This document shows positions 2,382 through 54,270 of a stretch of DNA of 64,000 nt, piece after piece (the first letter of the stretch is position 1; each line of letters begins with the position of its first letter). Location: the NCBI GenBank assembly GCA_002372275.1, contig DFFP01000013.1:15603-79602 (forward strand), given 5' to 3'. This stretch comes from Alphaproteobacteria bacterium UBA3773. GTDB taxonomy: Bacteria; Pseudomonadota; Alphaproteobacteria; RF32; CAG-239. A model generated the notes under the pieces. The model was not told where the DNA came from, did no database searches, and worked only from the letters and a program-made list of their open reading frames with translations. The position numbers were made by a program, and so were the translations under genes.

Positions 2382-3608
2382 TTATATTTGGAAAGATAGT
2401 TTTTCAAAAAACGCTTTGATTTCCTGATTTGAAATTGCTTCACAGGCTTCATTTAAAAAGGCTGAAGTCAATATTTTTTTAGCTTCATCTTCTGCTATAC
2501 CACGTGATTTTAAGTAAAAGAGCTGTTCTTCATCTAAAGCACCGCTTGTGGCACCGTGCGAGCATTTCACATCATCGGCATATATCTCTAAAGCAGGTTT
2601 AACATCCACTTTTGCGTCATCCGAGAGCAAAAGCGCACGATGTGTTTGGTGTCCGTTTGTTTGTACGGCACCTGGTTTAATTAAAATCTTTCCTTGAAAA
2701 ACACCGTGTGCATGGTCTCTCATCACACCTTTCACAATTTGATCAGAATTTGTGTGCGCCGACAAATGTTCGATATCCGTTGTTGTGTCGGCAAGTGTCT
2801 GACTACCTATCACATAAGCTCCGTTCACAAGTGCTGTTGCATTTTCTTGCTCTAACAAAACGTGCGTTTCGCACCGTGAAAGTTTGGAACCTGTTTGAAA
2901 GGCAAAACTATTGAAATGTCCGTTTTCTTTGACATGGACATGATTAAAACTGCTGTGCACGGCCGTCTTGCCGTCATTTTGCCATAAATAGTGCGTCAAT
3001 GTCGCATCAGGCGCAACAAAAATTTCATTGACCATATTGATAAAATAGGCTTCATCATTTCCTTGATAAAGTTCAAAAATTTCAGCCGTAACCCCTTTTT
3101 CTAAAATGATAAAGTTACGGATGTTATGAAAGCCTGCCGATTTTCCGTTATAAATGAGCGCAATCGGTTTTGCTGGCGTTTTAGAAATTCTTAAAAATAT
3201 CCCCTCTTGAACATACGCCGTATTGAGTGCCGCCAGCGGAAATTTATCCAAATCTATTTTATTTAAATATGGCGCTGTTTCATGATCTGCAAAAGCGTCT
3301 TCCAAACTCAAACATTCCGCACCTTCAATATAATGCAGATGATGGTGTAATGCCCCATCACAAAAGTGAATTTCATGCGCCTCAAAAGGTAAAAACTTTT
3401 TCTCGCAATCACAATGTGTATGATCATGGGCGTTTTTCGAAACTTTAAAATAATTTTCAGTCAAAACACTTTCAATCGGCGTATATTTAAAAGCTTCCGT
3501 TTTTAAATCCGTTAAATGCGCACATACTTCTCTTCCCTTTTGTTGAAAAGAAAATAAAGAAGGGACAGAGCTGTCTTGAAACTGAATGTGATCTGAAAAT
3601 TTTAACAT
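2382..3608 (-). CDS. sufD: Fe-S cluster assembly protein SufD
   Basis: 408-aa SufB/SufD-family protein lying downstream of sufC and overlapping it by 7 nt. Confidence 0.8.
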   Translation of the reverse strand: MLKFSDHIQFQDSSVPSLFSFQQKGREVCAHLTDLKTEAFKYTPIESVLTENYFKVSKNAHDHTHCDCEKKFLPFEAHEIHFCDGALHHHLHYIEGAECLSLEDAFADHETAPYLNKIDLDKFPLAALNTAYVQEGIFLRISKTPAKPIALIYNGKSAGFHNIRNFIILEKGVTAEIFELYQGNDEAYFINMVNEIFVAPDATLTHYLWQNDGKTAVHSSFNHVHVKENGHFNSFAFQTGSKLSRCETHVLLEQENATALVNGAYVIGSQTLADTTTDIEHLSAHTNSDQIVKGVMRDHAHGVFQGKILIKPGAVQTNGHQTHRALLLSDDAKVDVKPALEIYADDVKCSHGATSGALDEEQLFYLKSRGIAEDEAKKILTSAFLNEACEAISNQEIKAFFEKLSFQI

Positions 3609-4372
3609 TTTGCCTCGTTGATGAAATCAGTGTAACCTTTGGCCTCTAAGGTGAAGGCTAAAGTTTGATCGCCGGATTTGATGATTTTTCCGTCTGAAAA
3701 AACATGCACAAAATCAGGCTTCACATATTCAAACAAATCATCATGATGGGTAATAATCAAAAGAGATTTCTTTCCGTCAAGCAAGGCATTTATGCCTAAA
3801 AAAACGGTTTTTAGCGCATCAATATCAAGCCCCGAATCCGCCTCATCCAAAATCGCCAAATCCGGATTTAGAAGCGCCATTTGAAGTGTTTCCATACGTT
3901 TTTTTTCACCGCCTGAAAAGCCGACATTGATGGCACGTTTAAGCATTTCGGAACTGATATTTAATTTTGAAGCCTGCTTTCTGACCGTTTTCATAAATTC
4001 TGACATATCAAGCTCTTCAAGTCCTTGATATTTTCGCTTGGCATTCATAGCATATTTTAAGAACGTCATCATCGGAACACCCTCAATTTCAACCGGATAT
4101 TGCATCATTAAAAAGAGTCCCTCAAGTGCGCGCTCTTCTGTTTTGAGATCAAGTAAATTTTTGCCGTGAAACAAAATTTCGCCCGACGATACCACATACC
4201 CAGGTTTTCCGGTTAAAATATGCGAAAGTGTCGATTTTCCGGCACCGTTCGGCCCCATAATGGCGTGAACTTCCCCTTCATTAATGGTCAAATTTAGCCC
4301 TTTAATGATTTCTTTTCCCTCCACACCTGCATGCAGATTTTTGATTTCAAGTAATTCCTTTTTATATGTCAT
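3602..4372 (-). CDS. sufC: Fe-S cluster assembly ATPase SufC
   Basis: ABC ATPase with Walker A GPNGAGKST, signature FSGGEKKR and Walker B ILDEADSGLD. Confidence 0.9.
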   Translation of the reverse strand: MTYKKELLEIKNLHAGVEGKEIIKGLNLTINEGEVHAIMGPNGAGKSTLSHILTGKPGYVVSSGEILFHGKNLLDLKTEERALEGLFLMMQYPVEIEGVPMMTFLKYAMNAKRKYQGLEELDMSEFMKTVRKQASKLNISSEMLKRAINVGFSGGEKKRMETLQMALLNPDLAILDEADSGLDIDALKTVFLGINALLDGKKSLLIITHHDDLFEYVKPDFVHVFSDGKIIKSGDQTLAFTLEAKGYTDFINEAKC

Positions 4373-47036: not shown

Positions 47037-47489
47037 ATGATGAAACGCGTTGAAATCTATACAGACGGTGCTTGTTCCGGAAACCCGGGAATCGGTGGTT
47101 GGGGGTGTATTTTGCGCTATAAAGAAAACGAAAAAGAACTCTCGGGCGGAGAACTTCAAACAACCAACAATCGTATGGAGCTCACCGCCGTTATTGAAGC
47201 CTTAAAAGCCTTAAAAACAAGCTGTAACGTCACGCTTTATACCGATAGCAAATATGTAATGGACGGCATTACCGAATGGCTTTCAGAATGGAAGAAAAAC
47301 GGCTGGAAAACCAAAAGCAAAAAAAATGAAGTCAAAAACATTGACCTTTGGCAAATGCTTGATGAGTTGAAATCAAAGCATGAAATTCGTTTTGTTTGGG
47401 TCAAAGGCCATAACGGGGACGAAGGCAACGAAAGAGTTGATGCTTTAGCCAGATCGGAAGTCATAAAATTAAAAGCACAAGAAAAGTAA
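47037..47489 (+). CDS. rnhA: Ribonuclease HI
   Basis: [15 protein letters not shown] and a conserved C-terminal DE..N.R.D.LA. Confidence 0.9.
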
Positions 47490-49304: not shown

Positions 49305-49381
49305 CGGATTGTAGTTCAGCCTGGTAGAACGCTTCGTTCGGGTCGAAGAGGTCGCTGGTTCGAATCCAGTCAATCCGACCA
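49305..49381 (+). tRNA. tRNA-Pro (anticodon CGG)
   Basis: Cloverleaf: acceptor CGGATTG/CAATCCG, D-stem GTTC/GAAC, anticodon stem CTTCG/CGAAG with loop TTCGGGT, T-arm GCTGG-TTCGAAT-CCAGT, encoded CCA. Confidence 0.9.
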
Positions 49382-49399
49382 ATATAGATAACAATTAGG

Positions 49400-49429
49400 A
49401 AACGGATACTTTTGAGTGTCCGTTTTTTT
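49400..49429 (+). terminator. Terminator-like hairpin after the tRNA
   Basis: aacgga...tccgtt followed by T7. Confidence 0.5.
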
Positions 49430-49550
49430 GTTGCCTATTAGAAAAGTATTGTCGTTAAAGTAATTTCACGATATTAAAAATTTTATGACCATGAGGTCAC
49501 TTTTGAGGAATTTTTTCGTAAAAACGCTCTTTAAATATAAATTTGAAACT

Positions 49551-49586
49551 TGACCACGTGGACACTTTTCACGCGCCACGTGGTCG
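49551..49586. promoter_or_regulatory. Pair of inverted GACCACGTGG motifs (candidate operator)
   Basis: tgaccacgtggacac at 49551..49565 and cgccacgtggtcg at 49574..49586. The palindromic core CCACGTGG recurs at the cassette boundary. Confidence 0.35.
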
Positions 49587-49702
49587 TAACGCATTGATTT
49601 TATTTAATTGTCATAAAAATCTATGCTGTTTTCCGCAATCTTAAGAGTGGTGGGGTATACTGAGGATACTGACAACGTGCTTTTTATTATTAAAAATCAA
49701 CA

Positions 49703-49722
49703 ACATATACTGTCCACGTGGT
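49703..49722. repeat. Left 20-bp terminal inverted repeat of the defence cassette
   Basis: acatatactgtccacgtggt. Confidence 0.75.
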
Positions 49723-49791
49723 AATAAAACTTGACTTTTATATTTTTTCAAGCGTTATTGTAGTAAGTGTCTATACAGAAAGGAGAACAAC

Positions 49792-49977
49792 ATGACTCAA
49801 GCCGAAAAACTCGTTAAAATTATCATGCCGGATTTGTTAAGATATTTAAAATTAAAAGAACGTGGTCTTGTATGTCAAAATCGCGTTTTGCAACGAATTC
49901 CGTTAGATCAAAGGGAGAAAAAAGAGGAAGAATTTGAAGAATTCAGCGAGGAAGCTAATAAAATCTTAAATAAGTAA
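49792..49977 (+). CDS. Small hypothetical protein (61 aa), first gene of the cassette
   Basis: Strong RBS (aaaggagaacaac-ATG); basic N-terminal half and acidic C-terminus; possible regulator. Confidence 0.35.
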   Translation: MTQAEKLVKIIMPDLLRYLKLKERGLVCQNRVLQRIPLDQREKKEEEFEEFSEEANKILNK

Positions 49978-50036
49978 AATTTTTATTGCTATAATTTTTA
50001 ATTCAGCCTATACTCTTTTCTGACCTAGGATACAAA

Positions 50037-50972
50037 ATGAATAACGCATTAATTTTAAATGAAGACTATTTAGAGTTTCATGCAAAGCCCGTTTTAAAGT
50101 GGGCTGGCGGCAAAGGTATGCTTTTACCACAAATCACAGAGCATTTACCTACAAAGTTAAAATTTGGTGCAATAAAGCGTTATATTGAACCGTTTGTCGG
50201 CGGTGGTGCTGTTTTCTTTGAACTGACAAACAACTATAATTTTGAAGATGCGTATCTGTTTGATGTTAATCCTGAACTAGTTATACTCTATAATGTGATT
50301 AAAAATAACGTTGAAGATTTGATATCTGAGTTGTCCGTTTTACAGCAAGCTTATAATGATGCATCGGATAAAACGGCATTCTACTATTCTATTCGTGATG
50401 AGTATAATCATTTTGATAAAAATGTGGATGCAAATAAATATACAACTGATTTTATTAGGCGCGCAGCTTTAACAGTTTGTTTGAACCGAACCTGTTTTAA
50501 TGGTTTGTTTAGGGTTAATTCAAAGGGACTGTTTAACGTTCCTGTCGGAAAGTACAAGAATCCGCGGATTTTAGATGAAAGTAATTTAAGAGAAGTTTCA
50601 AAAGCTCTGCAGTGCGCAACAATACTGCAAACGGATTTTGCTTCTGCTTTAGACTATGTAAACTCTGATGCCTTTGTTTATTATGACCCACCGTATCGAC
50701 CGATTAACGCCAGTTCGTTTAATTCTTATGCTGTTGGCGATTTTGATGATGATGAACAAAGACGTTTAAAAGATGTTTTCGCTAAGGCAAATGAGTTAGG
50801 CGCTTTGCAGATGCTCAGCAATTCTGACCCGACCAACTACAATCCTAAAGACATGTTCTTTGATAGTTTATATCGTGATTATACAATTCACAGAATTTGG
50901 GCAAAAAGAATGATTAATGCTGATCCGAATGGTCGCGATGGTGTAAGGGAACTTTTAATTACGAACTATTGA
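50037..50972 (+). CDS. Dam-family (alpha-class) N6-adenine DNA methyltransferase
   Basis: N-terminal AdoMet motif LKWAGGKG and the catalytic YYDPPY later in the sequence, which is the order seen in Dam/M.DpnII-like enzymes. Confidence 0.85.
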   Translation: MNNALILNEDYLEFHAKPVLKWAGGKGMLLPQITEHLPTKLKFGAIKRYIEPFVGGGAVFFELTNNYNFEDAYLFDVNPELVILYNVIKNNVEDLISELSVLQQAYNDASDKTAFYYSIRDEYNHFDKNVDANKYTTDFIRRAALTVCLNRTCFNGLFRVNSKGLFNVPVGKYKNPRILDESNLREVSKALQCATILQTDFASALDYVNSDAFVYYDPPYRPINASSFNSYAVGDFDDDEQRRLKDVFAKANELGALQMLSNSDPTNYNPKDMFFDSLYRDYTIHRIWAKRMINADPNGRDGVRELLITNY

Positions 50973-50974
50973 GA

Positions 50975-51760
50975 ATGAAAGAGATTTATAATTTATATTG
51001 TGCCGATTGTATTAAAAAATTAAAAGATTTCCCTGAAAACACTTTTGATATGATTTTTGCTGACCCGCCTTATATGCTTTCTAATGGTGGTATTAGTTGT
51101 CAAAACGGACGTGTTGTTTCCGTTAATAAAGGTGATTGGGATGAAAGCAAAGGTTTCAAAGAAGATTTTAAATTTCACAAGAAATGGTTGTCAGCCTGTA
51201 AGCGCGTTTTGAAACCAAATGGAACTTTATGGGTATCCGGAACCTATCACAGCATTTTTCAATGTGGTTTTGCTATGCAGTTACTGGGGTATCATATTCT
51301 AAATGATATTTCTTGGTTTAAGCCTAATGCCAGCCCGAATATGTCTTGTCGTTATTTCACAGCAAGTCATGAAACGTTGATTTGGGCCAGAAAAGATAAG
51401 AAATCGCGGCACTATTTTAATTATGATGCGATGAAAGACGGGGATTTTCCGAAAGATTTTATTAAAAAACCTCACTCGCAAATGAGAAGTGTTTGGTCTA
51501 TCGGAACACCTACACCGAGTGAAAAACAATTTGGGAAGCACCCGACCCAAAAGCCTTTGGAGTTGTTGGAACGAATCATTCTCGCTTCAACAAAGGAAAA
51601 TGACCTGATTTTGGATCCGTTTATGGGAAGTGGCACAACCGGAGTAGCCGCTATGAAATTAGGTCGACAATTTATCGGAATCGAAAAGAATCCGGAATTT
51701 ATCGTGCTGGCGGATAAAAGGATTTTTGATGCGTATCAACATAAGGAGAATAAAGAATGA
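50975..51760 (+). CDS. Beta-class N6A/N4C DNA methyltransferase (M.DpnA/M.MboIC-like)
   Basis: Catalytic DPPY near the N-terminus (MIFADPPYM) and AdoMet motif ILDPFMGSGTTG near the C-terminus. An ATG at 50975 is preferred over the TTG at 50969. Confidence 0.85.
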   Translation: MKEIYNLYCADCIKKLKDFPENTFDMIFADPPYMLSNGGISCQNGRVVSVNKGDWDESKGFKEDFKFHKKWLSACKRVLKPNGTLWVSGTYHSIFQCGFAMQLLGYHILNDISWFKPNASPNMSCRYFTASHETLIWARKDKKSRHYFNYDAMKDGDFPKDFIKKPHSQMRSVWSIGTPTPSEKQFGKHPTQKPLELLERIILASTKENDLILDPFMGSGTTGVAAMKLGRQFIGIEKNPEFIVLADKRIFDAYQHKENKE

Positions 51761-52299
51761 AAGAAAATGGTATAGGTGGTGCAAACACCAAGACAGGTTT
51801 GGTCTTTGAAGGAAAAACAGATTTGCAAACATTTTTATGTGGGCAAAAGGGATACTCATGCCAAACTAATAATTCAGGTTGGGTAGATGTCTTTTATAAC
51901 AAAGAACAAGTTGCTTCTATTTTTAAGAAAACAGCACTATATCGTTTTCTCGACAGTAGAAAGGTTGATTGGAAATCTATATTATCCAAAAAACTTTTGC
52001 CAGACGATTCTATTTATGTCGTCTGCAATAATACCTTTTTTGTTATAGAATGTAAATTTCAGAAAGTTGCAGGTTCTGTTGATGAAAAACTACAAACATG
52101 TGATTTTAAGAAAAAACAATATAAAAAGTTGTTGGCTCAACTTAATATGGAAGTAGAATATATATACTTATTGAGTGAGTGGTTTAAACAAAAACAATAT
52201 AAAGATGTTTTGGAGTATATTATTTCTGTTGGATGCTCTTATTACTTTGAATACATTCCGTTGAGCAAGTTTGGTTTACCTGTTCCTGAAAAAATATGA
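51757..52299 (+). CDS. Putative type II restriction endonuclease (PD-(D/E)xK)
   Basis: 180 aa with PDD...(15 aa)...IECK, matching the PD-(D/E)xK signature. Its ATG overlaps the MTase stop (ATGA). Specificity unknown. Confidence 0.5.
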   Translation: MKENGIGGANTKTGLVFEGKTDLQTFLCGQKGYSCQTNNSGWVDVFYNKEQVASIFKKTALYRFLDSRKVDWKSILSKKLLPDDSIYVVCNNTFFVIECKFQKVAGSVDEKLQTCDFKKKQYKKLLAQLNMEVEYIYLLSEWFKQKQYKDVLEYIISVGCSYYFEYIPLSKFGLPVPEKI

Positions 52300-52312
52300 A
52301 AGGAAAATTTAT

Positions 52313-53368
52313 ATGACAAAAGAATATAATTACAAGTTAACGAGTTATAATGCGAGTTTTAGCTTAAAAGAGTATACAGAAAGATATGCTGAAAAAAGTA
52401 TCTCTGATGAGGAAAATGTGCTCAAAATAGGTCGTTTCTTTGCACCAGCTTTTCAAAGAAATGCTGTTTGGACTGATAAAGCTAAAAGTAAGCTAATCGA
52501 AACTTTTTTAATTAAGTTACCTGTTCCTCCTGTTTTTTTATACAAAAATAGAAATGCTCAACATGAAATTATTGATGGTTATCAGAGAATTAAAACAATA
52601 TATGATTTTATGAAAAATAAGCTAAGGTTGGTAGGTTTAGATAGCTGTTACAACAAAAAAATCTTTGATGATTTATCAGAAATAGAAAAAGCTGACTTTG
52701 AAACAAAGATGTTAAATTGTGTTATCATAGAAAATATTGATGAAACAAGTGATAGAGATGCTTTATATGAAATTTTTGCGCGCCTAAATTCTGGGGGAAC
52801 AAATTTAAATAATATGGAGATTAGAAGAGCGATAGGTTGGGGCAGATTATTATTTGACATAGAAGAATTTAATAAAACTAGAGAATGGAAACTTTTATGG
52901 GGAGAAAAAACAGCAAATCGTTATGAGGATATAGAATTAATTTTAAGAATTCTGGCATTATCTGAAGTAGTATTTGATAAAGGAATGAGGGAATTTTTAA
53001 ATAATTATCTTGAAGACAATAAATATGCAGATAAGCGTGAAAAGTTAAATCTTCTGAAGAACTCCATTTTACTAATTTTAGAAAATTATAAATCTAATAA
53101 GCCTTTTCACAGCGAAAAAGGAACAAGAGTAAATTTTGCTCTTGCTGATTCTATTTTACCTGTGATAATGAATCATCCCGAAATTTCCAACATTTCTCAA
53201 AAACTTCATAAATTACTGGATAGAGATTTTGATAACTATTATAGTAGCGAGCTAGAAAAGGAACTTTGTAAAAATTTCCAAAGTATTTGTTTTAAAGGGC
53301 AAGGTTCTATATCGAAAAAAGCTGTTTGTGAACGTAGAAATATCGCTGAAAAGATTTTATTGTCATGA
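52313..53368 (+). CDS. DUF262 (ParB-like, DGQHR-motif) domain protein
   Basis: Conserved FQR...DGYQRI motif (the DGxQR of DUF262/GmrSD N-terminal domains). An RBS aagga immediately follows the REase stop, and the ATG at 52313 is preferred over the TTG at 52271. Confidence 0.7.
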   Translation: MTKEYNYKLTSYNASFSLKEYTERYAEKSISDEENVLKIGRFFAPAFQRNAVWTDKAKSKLIETFLIKLPVPPVFLYKNRNAQHEIIDGYQRIKTIYDFMKNKLRLVGLDSCYNKKIFDDLSEIEKADFETKMLNCVIIENIDETSDRDALYEIFARLNSGGTNLNNMEIRRAIGWGRLLFDIEEFNKTREWKLLWGEKTANRYEDIELILRILALSEVVFDKGMREFLNNYLEDNKYADKREKLNLLKNSILLILENYKSNKPFHSEKGTRVNFALADSILPVIMNHPEISNISQKLHKLLDRDFDNYYSSELEKELCKNFQSICFKGQGSISKKAVCERRNIAEKILLS

Positions 53369-53886
53369 TAGTATATCTAAAACAGACGGAAAAACTTTTT
53401 CTTTCTCTTAACGAGGAATATAAAAATTCAAAAGCTGCAGGTGTGTTGACAGTTGTAACTCCTACGGCATTTGTTTCTTTTTTAATTATTCGTCTATCGT
53501 GCGAATTCGAATATTATGTACATGACATTGTAATTAAAAAGTGGAAATCTGAAACAACTTCAACAAAATTACATAATTTTCTACAAAATAAAATAAAAAT
53601 TCGTTCCTCTAAAAGAGAGCAATTACGTAATAATTTAAAAGAATATTTTGTAGATATTGATAATATTGATATTTTGTTTACTGATGACAAAGGGAAAAAT
53701 TACTATGATAAGATATTTGGAAAGAAAAAGGATGAGACAGGAGAGAATAATATAAGAGACCAAATAGCACATTTGTTAAGTTTACAGTTTTCTCTGTTGC
53801 CTCAATGGGATGAAATGTATGATTATATCCAAATTTGTGATAATGCCTTACAAAATATTGAAGCGAATTTGGATTTTAAGATGTAA
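53365..53886 (+). CDS. HEPN-like protein (Rx4H motif), possibly of the MAE_28990/MAE_18760-like family
   Basis: The start overlaps the DUF262 stop (ATGA). All-helical, with a C-terminal ...NNIRDQIAHLL (R-x4-H) motif. The family assignment is made from memory. Confidence 0.45.
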   Translation: MIVYLKQTEKLFLSLNEEYKNSKAAGVLTVVTPTAFVSFLIIRLSCEFEYYVHDIVIKKWKSETTSTKLHNFLQNKIKIRSSKREQLRNNLKEYFVDIDNIDILFTDDKGKNYYDKIFGKKKDETGENNIRDQIAHLLSLQFSLLPQWDEMYDYIQICDNALQNIEANLDFKM

Positions 53887-53899
53887 AAATAATCTTAAG

Positions 53900-53919
53900 A
53901 CCATGTGGACAGTATATGT
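53900..53919. repeat. Right 20-bp terminal inverted repeat of the defence cassette
   Basis: accatgtggacagtatatgt; its reverse complement acatatactgtccacatggt matches the left repeat at 19 of 20 positions. Confidence 0.75.
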
Positions 53920-54082
53920 CATTGTTTTTGAAATAAAAAAAGTACGTGGCTGGTATCTTCAGTTTGGGTGTTCACAATGGTTGCGAAACTGCGACCAAGT
54001 GGTATAACTAATTGAAATAGAATAATTTTTTAACCGTCAAAAAATGGTATCTTTTTCCTGATTTAGGGGTAGTTTGCACGAC

Positions 54083-54126
54083 CAAGACACAAAGACCGCC
54101 TTTATGGCGGTTTTTTTTGTGTCTTG
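54083..54126. terminator. Long bidirectional terminator hairpin
   Basis: caagacacaaag-accgcc-tttat-ggcggt-tttttttt-gtgtcttg (nested stems). Confidence 0.7.
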
Positions 54127-54139
54127 AATGCGAAAGCGT

Positions 54140-54156
54140 GGGGTTCGAACCAGCGA
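54140..54156 (-). other. Decayed tRNA T-arm-like fragment (13-nt identity to tRNA-Pro, inverted orientation)
   Basis: The minus-strand sequence tcgctggttcgaa is identical to positions 49350..49362 of the tRNA-Pro gene. The flanks do not fold as a full tRNA. Confidence 0.4.
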
Positions 54157-54248
54157 GAAGCTGTTCGACAAGAAGGATAAGGCACACGAGGTGTGCCGGT
54201 GCCGTTAGGCATATCCGACGCAGCGACGCAGATTTTTTTGATAAAAAA

Positions 54249-54270
54249 ATCAAGTCAATCCAGTCATAAG
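54249..54270 (+). repeat. Direct repeat copy 1 (atcaagtcaatccagtcataag), weakly resembling the tRNA-Pro 3' end
   Basis: About 19 of 21 positions identical to copy 2 at 55572..55592. Shares agtcaatcc with the tRNA 3' strand. Confidence 0.5.

Follow-up and report, generated by a model that had tools for sequence, protein, structure and literature searches.

Genes A and B of the window (the whole 64,000-nt stretch of contig DFFP01000013.1 analysed here) probably make up an autonomous two-gene anti-phage module with the architecture of PD-T4-2, in which a ParB/DUF262 NTPase, whose helical half would bind DNA, serves as sensor or switch and a small HEPN-type RNase as effector, a reading to which we assign a probability of roughly 75%. 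The pair is regarded as autonomous because it and the restriction-modification (R-M) cassette are each found without the other. Positions of the genes, motifs and flanking elements are collected in Table 1.

Table 1. Features of the gene pair and its surroundings (positions in the window)
Feature	Position (nt)	Strand	Basis
tRNA-Pro(CGG) adjoining the cassette island	49305..49381	+	context
Dam-type N6-adenine DNA methyltransferase, 311 aa, first cassette gene	50037..50972	+	MethyltransfD12 2.3e-61; TIGR00571 dam 5.5e-83
Second DNA methyltransferase, N6_N4 class, DpnA position	50969..51760	+	Pfam N6_N4_Mtase 2e-63; PADLOC MTase_II 6.8e-101
180-aa PD-(D/E)XK protein, presumed restriction endonuclease	51757..52299	+	PDDEXK_11 8.8e-06, 26 bits (cutoff 23.7)
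Gene A, DUF262/ParB-like, 351 aa	52313..53368	+	ORF; Pfam GmrSD_N, PADLOC, phrog_2598
QRxxxW, gene A, Q48-W53	52454-52471	+	DUF262 motif
DGYQR, gene A, residues 88-92	52574-52588	+	DUF262 motif
FxxxN, gene A, F155-N159	52775-52789	+	DUF262 motif
ATGA stop/start overlap of genes A and B	53365..53368	+	gene B ATG over gene A TGA
Gene B, all-helical, putative divergent HEPN-like protein, 173 aa	53365..53886	+	ORF, AF2 model, Rx4H
Glu49, gene B	53509-53511	+	conserved residue
RDQIAH (R131-x4-H136), gene B residues 131-136	53755-53772	+	conserved motif
First strong intrinsic-terminator-like hairpin past gene B	54091..54115	+	terminator scan

Gene A consists of a DUF262/ParB-like NTPase domain followed by a helical, ParBDB-like C-terminal half, and an AAGGA Shine-Dalgarno sequence lies 8 nt upstream of its ATG. 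The Pfam GmrSD_N/DUF262 profile matches residues 39-173 at 2.2e-26, and all three DUF262 motifs, as defined in PMC12065111, are each unchanged across 14 homologues; this bears out the preliminary description, made from the letters alone, of a protein with a DUF262/ParB-like DGYQR signature. That description had also noted the lack of the usual DUF1524/HNH half, and a Pfam scan likewise found no such domain in gene A, gene B or their neighbours. The AlphaFold2 (AF2) model of gene A has a pLDDT of 84, and its top Foldseek matches are pNOB8 ParB-N, BrxU, CTP-bound ParB, KorB, Noc and sulfiredoxin. Identity to enterobacterial and Pseudomonas relatives is ~30%.

Two explanations would make gene A a leftover of a larger system. 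The first, that it is a truncated GmrSD pseudogene, is rejected because the protein is full length, conserved and of low dN/dS: homologues of 348-377 aa align with it end to end, phrog_2598 (352 positions) covers residues 5-350 at 2.7e-57, and both genes of the pair evolve under purifying selection, with pairwise dN/dS values of 0.07-0.42. The second is that the pair is a decayed Menshen (NsnABC) or GmrSD remnant which has lost its ATPase and effector or its HNH half, and the best PADLOC match of gene A is indeed NsnA (2.2e-49, profile positions 67-378 of 385), ahead of PD-T4-2_A (7.9e-35, positions 55-325 of 363). However, this ranking does not discriminate, because NsnA also outscores PD-T4-2_A in relatives whose partners are bona fide HEPN proteins. 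The two-gene layout is moreover conserved with both ORFs intact, and neither an ATPase nor a DUF1524 gene is found nearby. We thus consider a remnant extremely improbable, and for Menshen the absence of NsnB and NsnC effectively refutes it.

Gene B is far harder to place by sequence. Searches with the Pfam, PADLOC, NCBIfam and PHROGs HMMs gave nothing credible (for Pfam, no match at E<=1 for gene B and none at E<=10 for its relatives), its sequence profile had 0 matches at E<=10 in the PDB, and 1.84 billion cluster representatives, searched exhaustively with a profile, yielded 3 clusters only, all of them close relatives. By these searches gene B belongs to a tiny sequence family of its own, to which no more distant members could be added. 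What the family keeps is the Rx4H motif: R131 and H136 are unchanged in 8/8 members at identities down to 38%. A lone motif of this kind could arise by chance, at a rough estimate of ~0.1 expected per protein of 173 residues, and the motif in gene B counts as significant because both residues are invariant across the family. The AF2 model is all-helical (pLDDT 79, pTM 0.79), although it was built on 5 sequences and pLDDT falls to ~63 near the motif. ORF coordinates, model and ATGA junction together confirm the earlier picture of a next gene of 173 aa, all-helical and carrying RDQIAH, whose start overlaps the DUF262 stop. HEPN proteins also head the structure search, in keeping with the HEPN reading of the preliminary description, though Foldseek against the PDB is non-significant: its best HEPN match is 1jog (E=4.6, TM 0.35-0.41). 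The nearest solved folds are the HEPN toxins of HepT/MNT systems (8xdj, 7ae2, 5yep).

Further evidence comes from the partners of distant DUF262 homologues. In 80 genomes of many phyla carrying a DUF262 homologue with ~30% identity to gene A (the search was seeded by 10 sequences), about 65 of the 80 loci have a 155-182-aa gene (roughly 168 aa) immediately 3', with R[NH]xxxH near residue 130 and gaps of mostly -4 to +15 nt to the DUF262 gene. The four partners that were scanned with Pfam matched either PF18735 HEPN_RiboL-PSP (1e-17, 3e-05, 1.4e-13) or PF18737 MAE_28990 (7.6e-18). An HMM of the syntenic partners aligns colinearly with the gene B family, matching the Glu and the Rx4H of one to those of the other, and gives 8-17 bits for 7/8 family members, against 7 of 4008 shuffled sequences at >=8 bits; gene B itself reaches 10.2 bits and its relatives up to 16.8, against 2/4008 shuffles at >=10 bits. 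The reverse profile search showed a 12-fold enrichment over shuffles at >=3 bits, and the spacing from Glu to Arg is 82-85 residues in the gene B family against a median of 84 in the partners. An hhalign comparison of the family with 65 diverse syntenic partners gave E=1e-3 with 22% probability over 43 columns; against PF18735, represented by a shallow alignment of 26 sequences, the 8-sequence family gave no significant result. The missing match of gene B to PADLOC PD-T4-2_B is uninformative, because bona fide PF18735 partners, including that of the E. coli plasmid relative, are not matched either. Synteny, colinear profile alignment and residue spacing thus argue for gene B as a divergent HEPN protein with a predicted RNase role. 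With the Rx4H conserved and gene A full length, they also favour the architecture that had been proposed, in which HEPN would stand in place of HNH.

The faintness of the HEPN signal in sequence and in Foldseek could also mean that gene B has no catalytic role and works as a helical adaptor or regulator, and that the DUF262 protein is the effector, acting for example as a ParB-like nickase or by hydrolysing or depleting NTPs on foreign DNA. Gene A does have a weak match to PADLOC REase_II (4.5e-09), and comparative genomics has called ParB-fold proteins nucleases (PMC3710099). This explanation seems to us unlikely.

The ATGA junction points to translational coupling of genes A and B, and a 4-nt overlap recurs in loci L007, L008, L010, L011 and L013. 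The two genes are kept together at every homologous locus that has both. Such an overlap is also toxin-antitoxin (TA)-like, and a HEPN toxin with a DUF262 antitoxin could serve mainly as an addiction module that stabilises the R-M island; the HepT/MNT toxins are the closest solved folds, the island is mobile and lies next to a tRNA, and recombinases occur in related loci. Many abortive-infection systems are TA-like, so this explanation is compatible with the anti-phage module. As the main role of the pair we nevertheless judge addiction quite improbable, since the E. coli relative PD-T4-2 guards its native strain against T4.

The pair is co-oriented with the R-M cassette and begins 13 nt past the stop codon of the presumed restriction endonuclease (REase) gene. 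Upstream, the N6_N4 methyltransferase (MTase) gene shares 4-nt overlaps with each of its neighbours, and the terminator scan reported no terminator-like site in 50212-54090. Homology to loci L002/L003 spans 49375-54260. Both MTases of a DpnII-type cassette are present, whereas the REase slot holds the 180-aa PDDEXK_11 protein and not a PF04556 protein, so that this REase does not belong to the DpnII family; the 180-aa gene always follows both MTases, and in L013 a DpnII gene stands there instead. The earlier statement that the pair is fused to the R-M operon thus stands physically at this locus, but the two modules are separable elsewhere: in L010, L011 and L015 the pair occurs without R-M, and no MTase lies next to it, while the cassette also occurs with the slot of the pair empty or filled by an AIPR gene. 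Pair and cassette are therefore separable and modular. The locus makes a clean case of modularity, since the 3' slot of a single R-M cassette can be filled by DUF262-HEPN or by AIPR or be left empty, and the swap of the REase between MTases of 71-77% identity adds the modularity of the cassette itself.

These separations bear on whether the R-M system includes the pair as an obligate functional arm, which would read the methylation, presumably of GATC type by analogy with DpnII, of the co-encoded MTases and fire the RNase on wrongly methylated DNA. Within the subclade, three gene orders (M-M-R180-pair, M-M-DpnII-pair and pair-M-M) link the pair to the same two MTases, Dam + N6_N4 (71-88% identity), and PD-lambda-5, a 'ParB/HEPN, methyltransferase' system, offers a precedent. 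Against this, both modules occur apart, and an N6_N4-type MTase lies within <=4 kb of only 5/80 distant pairs and a Dam-type MTase of 0/80. An obligate R-M subunit is hence rejected on the occurrence of both modules apart, and we hold this explanation to be very improbable. A functional coupling within this gut-alphaproteobacterial subclade is a speculative thought to which we give little weight: there the ParB-like protein may read methylation written by the co-travelling Dam + N6_N4 MTases, with DNA in the wrong state setting off the RNase. If true, such coupling would provide an RNA-targeting 'restriction' arm beside or replacing the DNA endonuclease, and the 173-aa protein would represent a HEPN clade that had not been catalogued before and is specialised for MTase coupling.

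For the autonomous module we infer a sensor role of the DUF262 protein, RNase activity of its partner, a trigger, an abortive outcome and any cooperation with R-M, as follows. The module lies at the 3' end of a DpnII-like R-M cassette, in its variable cargo slot, on an island adjacent to tRNA-Pro. The DUF262 protein would bind DNA and NTP through the pocket formed by QRxxxW, DGxQR and FxxxN, and an encounter with phage DNA would cause an NTP-dependent conformational change in it, perhaps cued by hypermodified DNA resistant to the type II enzyme. This change would release or activate the HEPN partner, whose Rx4H site, which dimerisation probably completes, would cut tRNA or mRNA, and the cleavage would block phage production, possibly with loss of the cell too.

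Among known systems, the type IV enzymes GmrSD, BrxU and SspE share the DUF262 NTPase domain with DGxQR, and BrxU, which complements the methylation-based system BREX (PMC10952713), is among the top structural matches of gene A. They differ in their DUF1524/HNH DNase domain, in place of which the present pair has a separate, putatively RNA-targeting protein as effector. NsnA of Menshen (NsnABC), for which a sensor role has been proposed (PMC12065111), is the same two-domain protein of ParB-DUF262 + ParBDB; however, its companions, the ABC ATPase NsnB and the inPIN-nuclease effector NsnC, are absent here and a HEPN protein is the partner. Pfam and PADLOC found no ATPase in the window operon, where gene B is followed by the terminator. 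PD-lambda-5, which has been read as a compact 'RM+Abi' system (PMC9519451), likewise joins ParB-like and HEPN functions with a DNA MTase, and the window Dam MTase matches PADLOC PD-Lambda-5_B at 1.2e-11. In contrast to its ParB/HEPN fusion protein, the window has two genes and a separate REase, and PADLOC PD-Lambda-5_A matched neither gene A nor gene B.

The preliminary description held that such a pairing is only loosely described, which is wrong: PD-T4-2 has been validated (PMC9519451), and operons of ParB, HEPN and methylase genes have been known since 2013, when Anantharaman et al. catalogued them with the RiboL-PSP-HEPN and MAE_28990 families (PMC3710099). Those operons likewise place a HEPN gene with ParB-fold and DNA methylase genes, but they are computational predictions, and neither Pfam family matches the window HEPN by HMM. 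In a P2-like phage, DUF262 and a MAE_28990 HEPN lie next to a cytosine MTase.

The closest system is PD-T4-2 of E. coli ECOR65 (Vassallo et al. 2022), described as 'DUF262, HEPN' with a length of 1540 bp and validated against T4; its subunit 2B matches PF18735 in HHpred at 97.8%, and deletion of the system from ECOR65 restored T4 plaquing (PMC9519451, Tables S1-S3 for the description). As judged via the PADLOC PD-T4-2_A profile and the E. coli plasmid relative CP057779.1 (same layout, Rx4H at 145), the likeness covers two genes in ~1.55 kb, a DUF262 protein of ~350-360 aa without DUF1524 and, in the related pairs examined, a small HEPN protein (~165-180 aa) directly 3' with Rx4H near residue 130. 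The differences are that gene B lies outside the PF18735/PF18737 HMMs in a separate tiny family, that the window pair sits behind an R-M cassette, and that the anti-phage phenotype is known from the E. coli system alone. In this PD-T4-2-like system the effector subunit is thus overlooked by the Pfam, PADLOC and NCBIfam HMM libraries, and finders requiring a recognisable HEPN subunit would probably miss the locus or mis-file it, because its DUF262 subunit scores best as Menshen NsnA. So divergent a pair could, in turn, help to find co-varying residues at the sensor-effector interface of PD-T4-2. The pair is hence no new system category; it is probably a divergent copy of PD-T4-2, the two-gene system already validated in E. 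coli.

The DUF262/ParB-like gene (gene A, 351 aa) and the putative HEPN gene (gene B, 173 aa) close a packed row of five co-oriented genes that opens with an R-M cassette of a Dam-type MTase, an N6_N4-class MTase and a 180-aa PD-(D/E)XK protein, the presumed REase. The cassette genes are joined by 4-nt overlaps, the start codon of gene A lies 13 nt past the REase stop and is preceded by an AAGGA Shine-Dalgarno 8 nt upstream, and gene B starts within the stop codon of gene A (ATGA), an overlap that the preliminary description had read correctly. Moreover, a terminator scan found no terminator-like site from 50212, 175 nt into the Dam gene, to the strong hairpin downstream of gene B. With this spacing, co-orientation and the lack of a terminator-like site in between, the pair is physically tightly linked to the R-M genes in the window.

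Features of the locus (window positions unless a related locus is named)
Feature	Position	Strand	Remark
Schlafen/AlbA_2 protein, 355 aa	45968-47035		domain match 3e-10
RNase H gene	47037-47489		adjoins preceding gene
tRNA-Pro(CGG)	49305-49381		adjoins island carrying cassette and pair
Island segment	49375-54260		94-95% identical to L002/L003
CCACGTGG palindromes	about 49554, 49571, 49713		grouped
Inverted repeat, 69 nt	49659-49727 / 53895-53963		imperfect (77%)
61-aa ORF	49792-49977		upstream of Dam gene
Dam-type MTase	50037-50972	+	first of row
N6_N4-class MTase	50969-51760	+	second of row
PD-(D/E)XK (PDDEXK_11) protein, 180 aa	51757-52299	+	third of row
Gene A	52313-53368	+	fourth of row
Gene B	53365-53886	+	fifth of row
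Hairpin	54091-54115		strong
HEFTH protein, 348 aa	54380-55426		just beyond island
REase and DUF262 genes, L002	3600-5154		frames overlap
DpnII-family enzyme, L013	4092-4988		298 aa
AIPR (PF10592), L104	5575-7257		560 aa
HEPN partner, L101 (CP057779.1)	3440-3982		PF18735
HEPN partner, L018	6110-6616		PF18735

Gene A matches Pfam GmrSD_N over residues 39-173 (2.2e-26), with DGYQR at residues 88-92, and the same scan gave no DUF1524 match, in agreement with the earlier reading of a DUF262 protein lacking that domain. The motifs QRxxxW, DGxQR and FxxxN reported for DUF262 (PMC12065111) correspond to Q48/R49/W53, D88/G89/Q91/R92 and F155/N159, all invariant in the homologue alignment. A truncated GmrSD, for which the preliminary description had allowed, is ruled out: PHROGs family 2598 (352 positions) matches residues 5-350, homologues with as little as 24% identity span 348-449 aa (mostly 348-377 aa) and can be aligned as far as the C-terminus, and comparison with five relatives gives pairwise dN/dS values of 0.07-0.17. 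Rather than half of a GmrSD, gene A encodes an entire DUF262 protein of the NsnA/PD-T4-2A type; PADLOC models matched it as NsnA (2.2e-49) and PD-T4-2_A (7.9e-35). Its AlphaFold2 model (pLDDT 84), whose best solved matches are pNOB8 ParB-N, BrxU, CTP-bound ParB, KorB, Noc and sulfiredoxin, predicts a nucleotide-binding ParB/Srx fold and, after it, a helical half.

At the level of profile matches, the family assignment was borne out for gene A but not for gene B, which had no credible match in Pfam, PADLOC, NCBIfam, PHROGs or PDB sequences. Its own family is tiny: a word-indexed search gave five clusters at 90% identity, and a search of 1.84 billion proteins gave only three representatives at 50% identity. 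R131 and H136, which bound the RDQIAH motif (residues 131-136) pointed out earlier, are invariant in this family down to 38% identity, where they form part of the conserved motif N-[IL]-R-[DN]-Q-[IL]-A-H, and pairwise dN/dS is 0.07-0.42. The AF2 model, built from 5 sequences, is all-helical as had been proposed (pLDDT 79, pTM 0.79); Foldseek against PDB gave no significant match, the two top TM-scores were the HEPN entries 1jog and 2hsb, and the modelled fold alone is suggestive of HEPN, not decisive.

Synteny provides the strongest argument for gene B as a HEPN protein. At every locus with a gene B relative, the gene immediately before it is a gene A relative, in most cases with the 4-nt overlap seen in the window, the sole exception being a short contig that ends at the upstream gene. 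With the DUF262 alignment as query, a scan of a single genome for each species yielded 80 loci, distributed over Proteobacteria, Bacteroidota, Chloroflexota, Acidobacteriota, Verrucomicrobiota, Planctomycetota and others. At ∼65 of these a DUF262 ORF of ∼360 aa is followed, mostly with a spacing of -4 to +15 nt, by a 155-182-aa ORF whose R[NH]xxxH lies near residue 130. In the Pfam scan, such partners matched PF18735 HEPN_RiboL-PSP in Pseudomonas (L018, 1e-17), on the E. coli IncF plasmid CP057779.1 (1.4e-13) and, below gathering score, at L020 (3e-05), and PF18737 HEPN_MAE_28990 in the P2-like phage P24B2 (7.6e-18). An HMM made from 65 syntenic downstream proteins aligned colinearly with the gene B family, pairing its conserved helix-2 Glu with E49 and RNxFAH with R[DN]QIAH; the window protein scored 10.2 bits and its relatives up to 16.8 bits, whereas shuffled controls reached at least 10 bits in 2 and 16.8 bits in 0 of 4008 cases. 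In the reverse search, 23 of 65 partners scored at least 3 bits compared with 115 of 3900 shuffles, while hhalign between the two families gave E=1e-3 at a probability of only 22%. The Glu-to-Arg spacing is 82-85 in the gene B family and has a median of 84 in the partners, and the tail beyond the His is 37 residues compared with 30-41. Over the same genome pairs, gene B (36-75% identity) evolves faster than gene A (60-82%). An orphan by sequence, gene B is placed among HEPN proteins by several weak lines that converge, and we consider it probably (roughly 0.8) a fast-evolving offshoot of RiboL-PSP/MAE_28990-type HEPN partners.

The preliminary description had regarded the pair as fused to the R-M operon; this holds for the tight arrangement in the window, but the two modules are separable and evolutionarily modular. 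The window order of two MTases, 180-aa REase and pair recurs in related loci L001-L006, L008 carries the pair ahead of two MTases, and L010, L011 and L015 carry it without R-M genes. Conversely, the cassette, with a REase >90% identical, is followed by a 560-aa AIPR gene in the slot of the pair in L104 and L106-L108, and the slot is empty in L109 and L110. Among 80 distant pairs, an N6_N4-type MTase lies within 4 kb in 5 and a Dam type in 0. The pattern matches that of defence genes nested within other such systems (bioRxiv 10.1101/2024.01.29.577857), and the 3′ end of this cassette acts as a site where Abi-type cargo is exchanged. There is a small chance of functional coupling to the MTases, because the same MTase pair recurs beside the DUF262-HEPN pair in this subclade. 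The REase is itself exchanged in L013, an Alphaproteobacteria MAG, for a DpnII-family enzyme between similar flanks (MTases 71-77% identical, same pair). In L002, otherwise 94% identical, the REase is called as 161 aa and the DUF262 gene as 368 aa, which suggests an indel at their junction.

The island in L002 and L003 is directly followed by a serine recombinase gene, which is missing from the window copy. The arms of the inverted repeat flank a block of six genes that begins with the 61-aa ORF and ends with the HEPN gene; the repeat is kept in L002 and L003, with its left arm deleted in L004. The 61-aa ORF is 98% conserved in L002-L004 and missing from other cassette versions; it had no family match and shows no obvious resemblance to HTH controller proteins. 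A few kb upstream, the Schlafen/AlbA_2 protein may be another defence-associated gene, and the HEFTH (HExxH, metalloprotease-like) protein is an orphan in Pfam, PADLOC, NCBIfam and PHROGs.

The DUF262 domain of GmrSD, BrxU and SspE couples DNA-feature sensing and NTP hydrolysis to switching on an effector (PMC10952713; PMC12065111), and dimers are the typical active form of HEPN RNases (bioRxiv 10.64898/2026.02.22.705581). From these analogies we propose a module in which gene A would sense DNA features and turn on the effector by NTP hydrolysis, and gene B would be the RNase. The sequences themselves establish domain identity, motif conservation, pairing, selection and modularity, and trigger, RNase activity, target and outcome are inferred. 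The pair would then form a second, RNA-targeting defence line behind the type II R-M, possibly against hypermodified phages such as the T-even phages blocked by PD-T4-2.

The gene pair is genuine and its earlier interpretation was essentially right, but its novelty was overstated: the pairing had been called only loosely described, and Vassallo et al. list PD-T4-2 of E. coli ECOR65 as ‘DUF262, HEPN’, a validated two-gene system of 1540 bp, in which 2A is PF03235 and HHpred assigned 2B to PF18735 (97.8%) and PF18737 (96.9%) (PMC9519451 Tables S1-S3). Deletion of PD-T4-2 in the native strain restored T4 plaquing (PMC9519451); our literature search found no mechanistic study of it. The window pair is not GmrSD, because DUF1524 is missing, and not Menshen (NsnABC), because NsnB and NsnC are missing. 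The ranking of NsnA over PD-T4-2_A in PADLOC is not discriminating, because relatives with bona fide HEPN partners rank alike; for the L101 and L018 partners, clear PF18735 members, PADLOC-DB v2 gave no credible match and none to PD-T4-2_B. Automated callers may hence overlook or mis-file DUF262-HEPN pairs, whose A subunits score higher as NsnA. Anantharaman et al. had noted RiboL-PSP-HEPN ‘in operon with ParB’ in 2013 (PMC3710099), and PD-lambda-5, ‘ParB/HEPN, methyltransferase’, was termed a compact RM+Abi system (PMC9519451). Because PD-T4-2, ParB-HEPN operons and PD-lambda-5 are already described, the window pair is a divergent representative of a familiar type of system, one already validated in E. 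coli as PD-T4-2.
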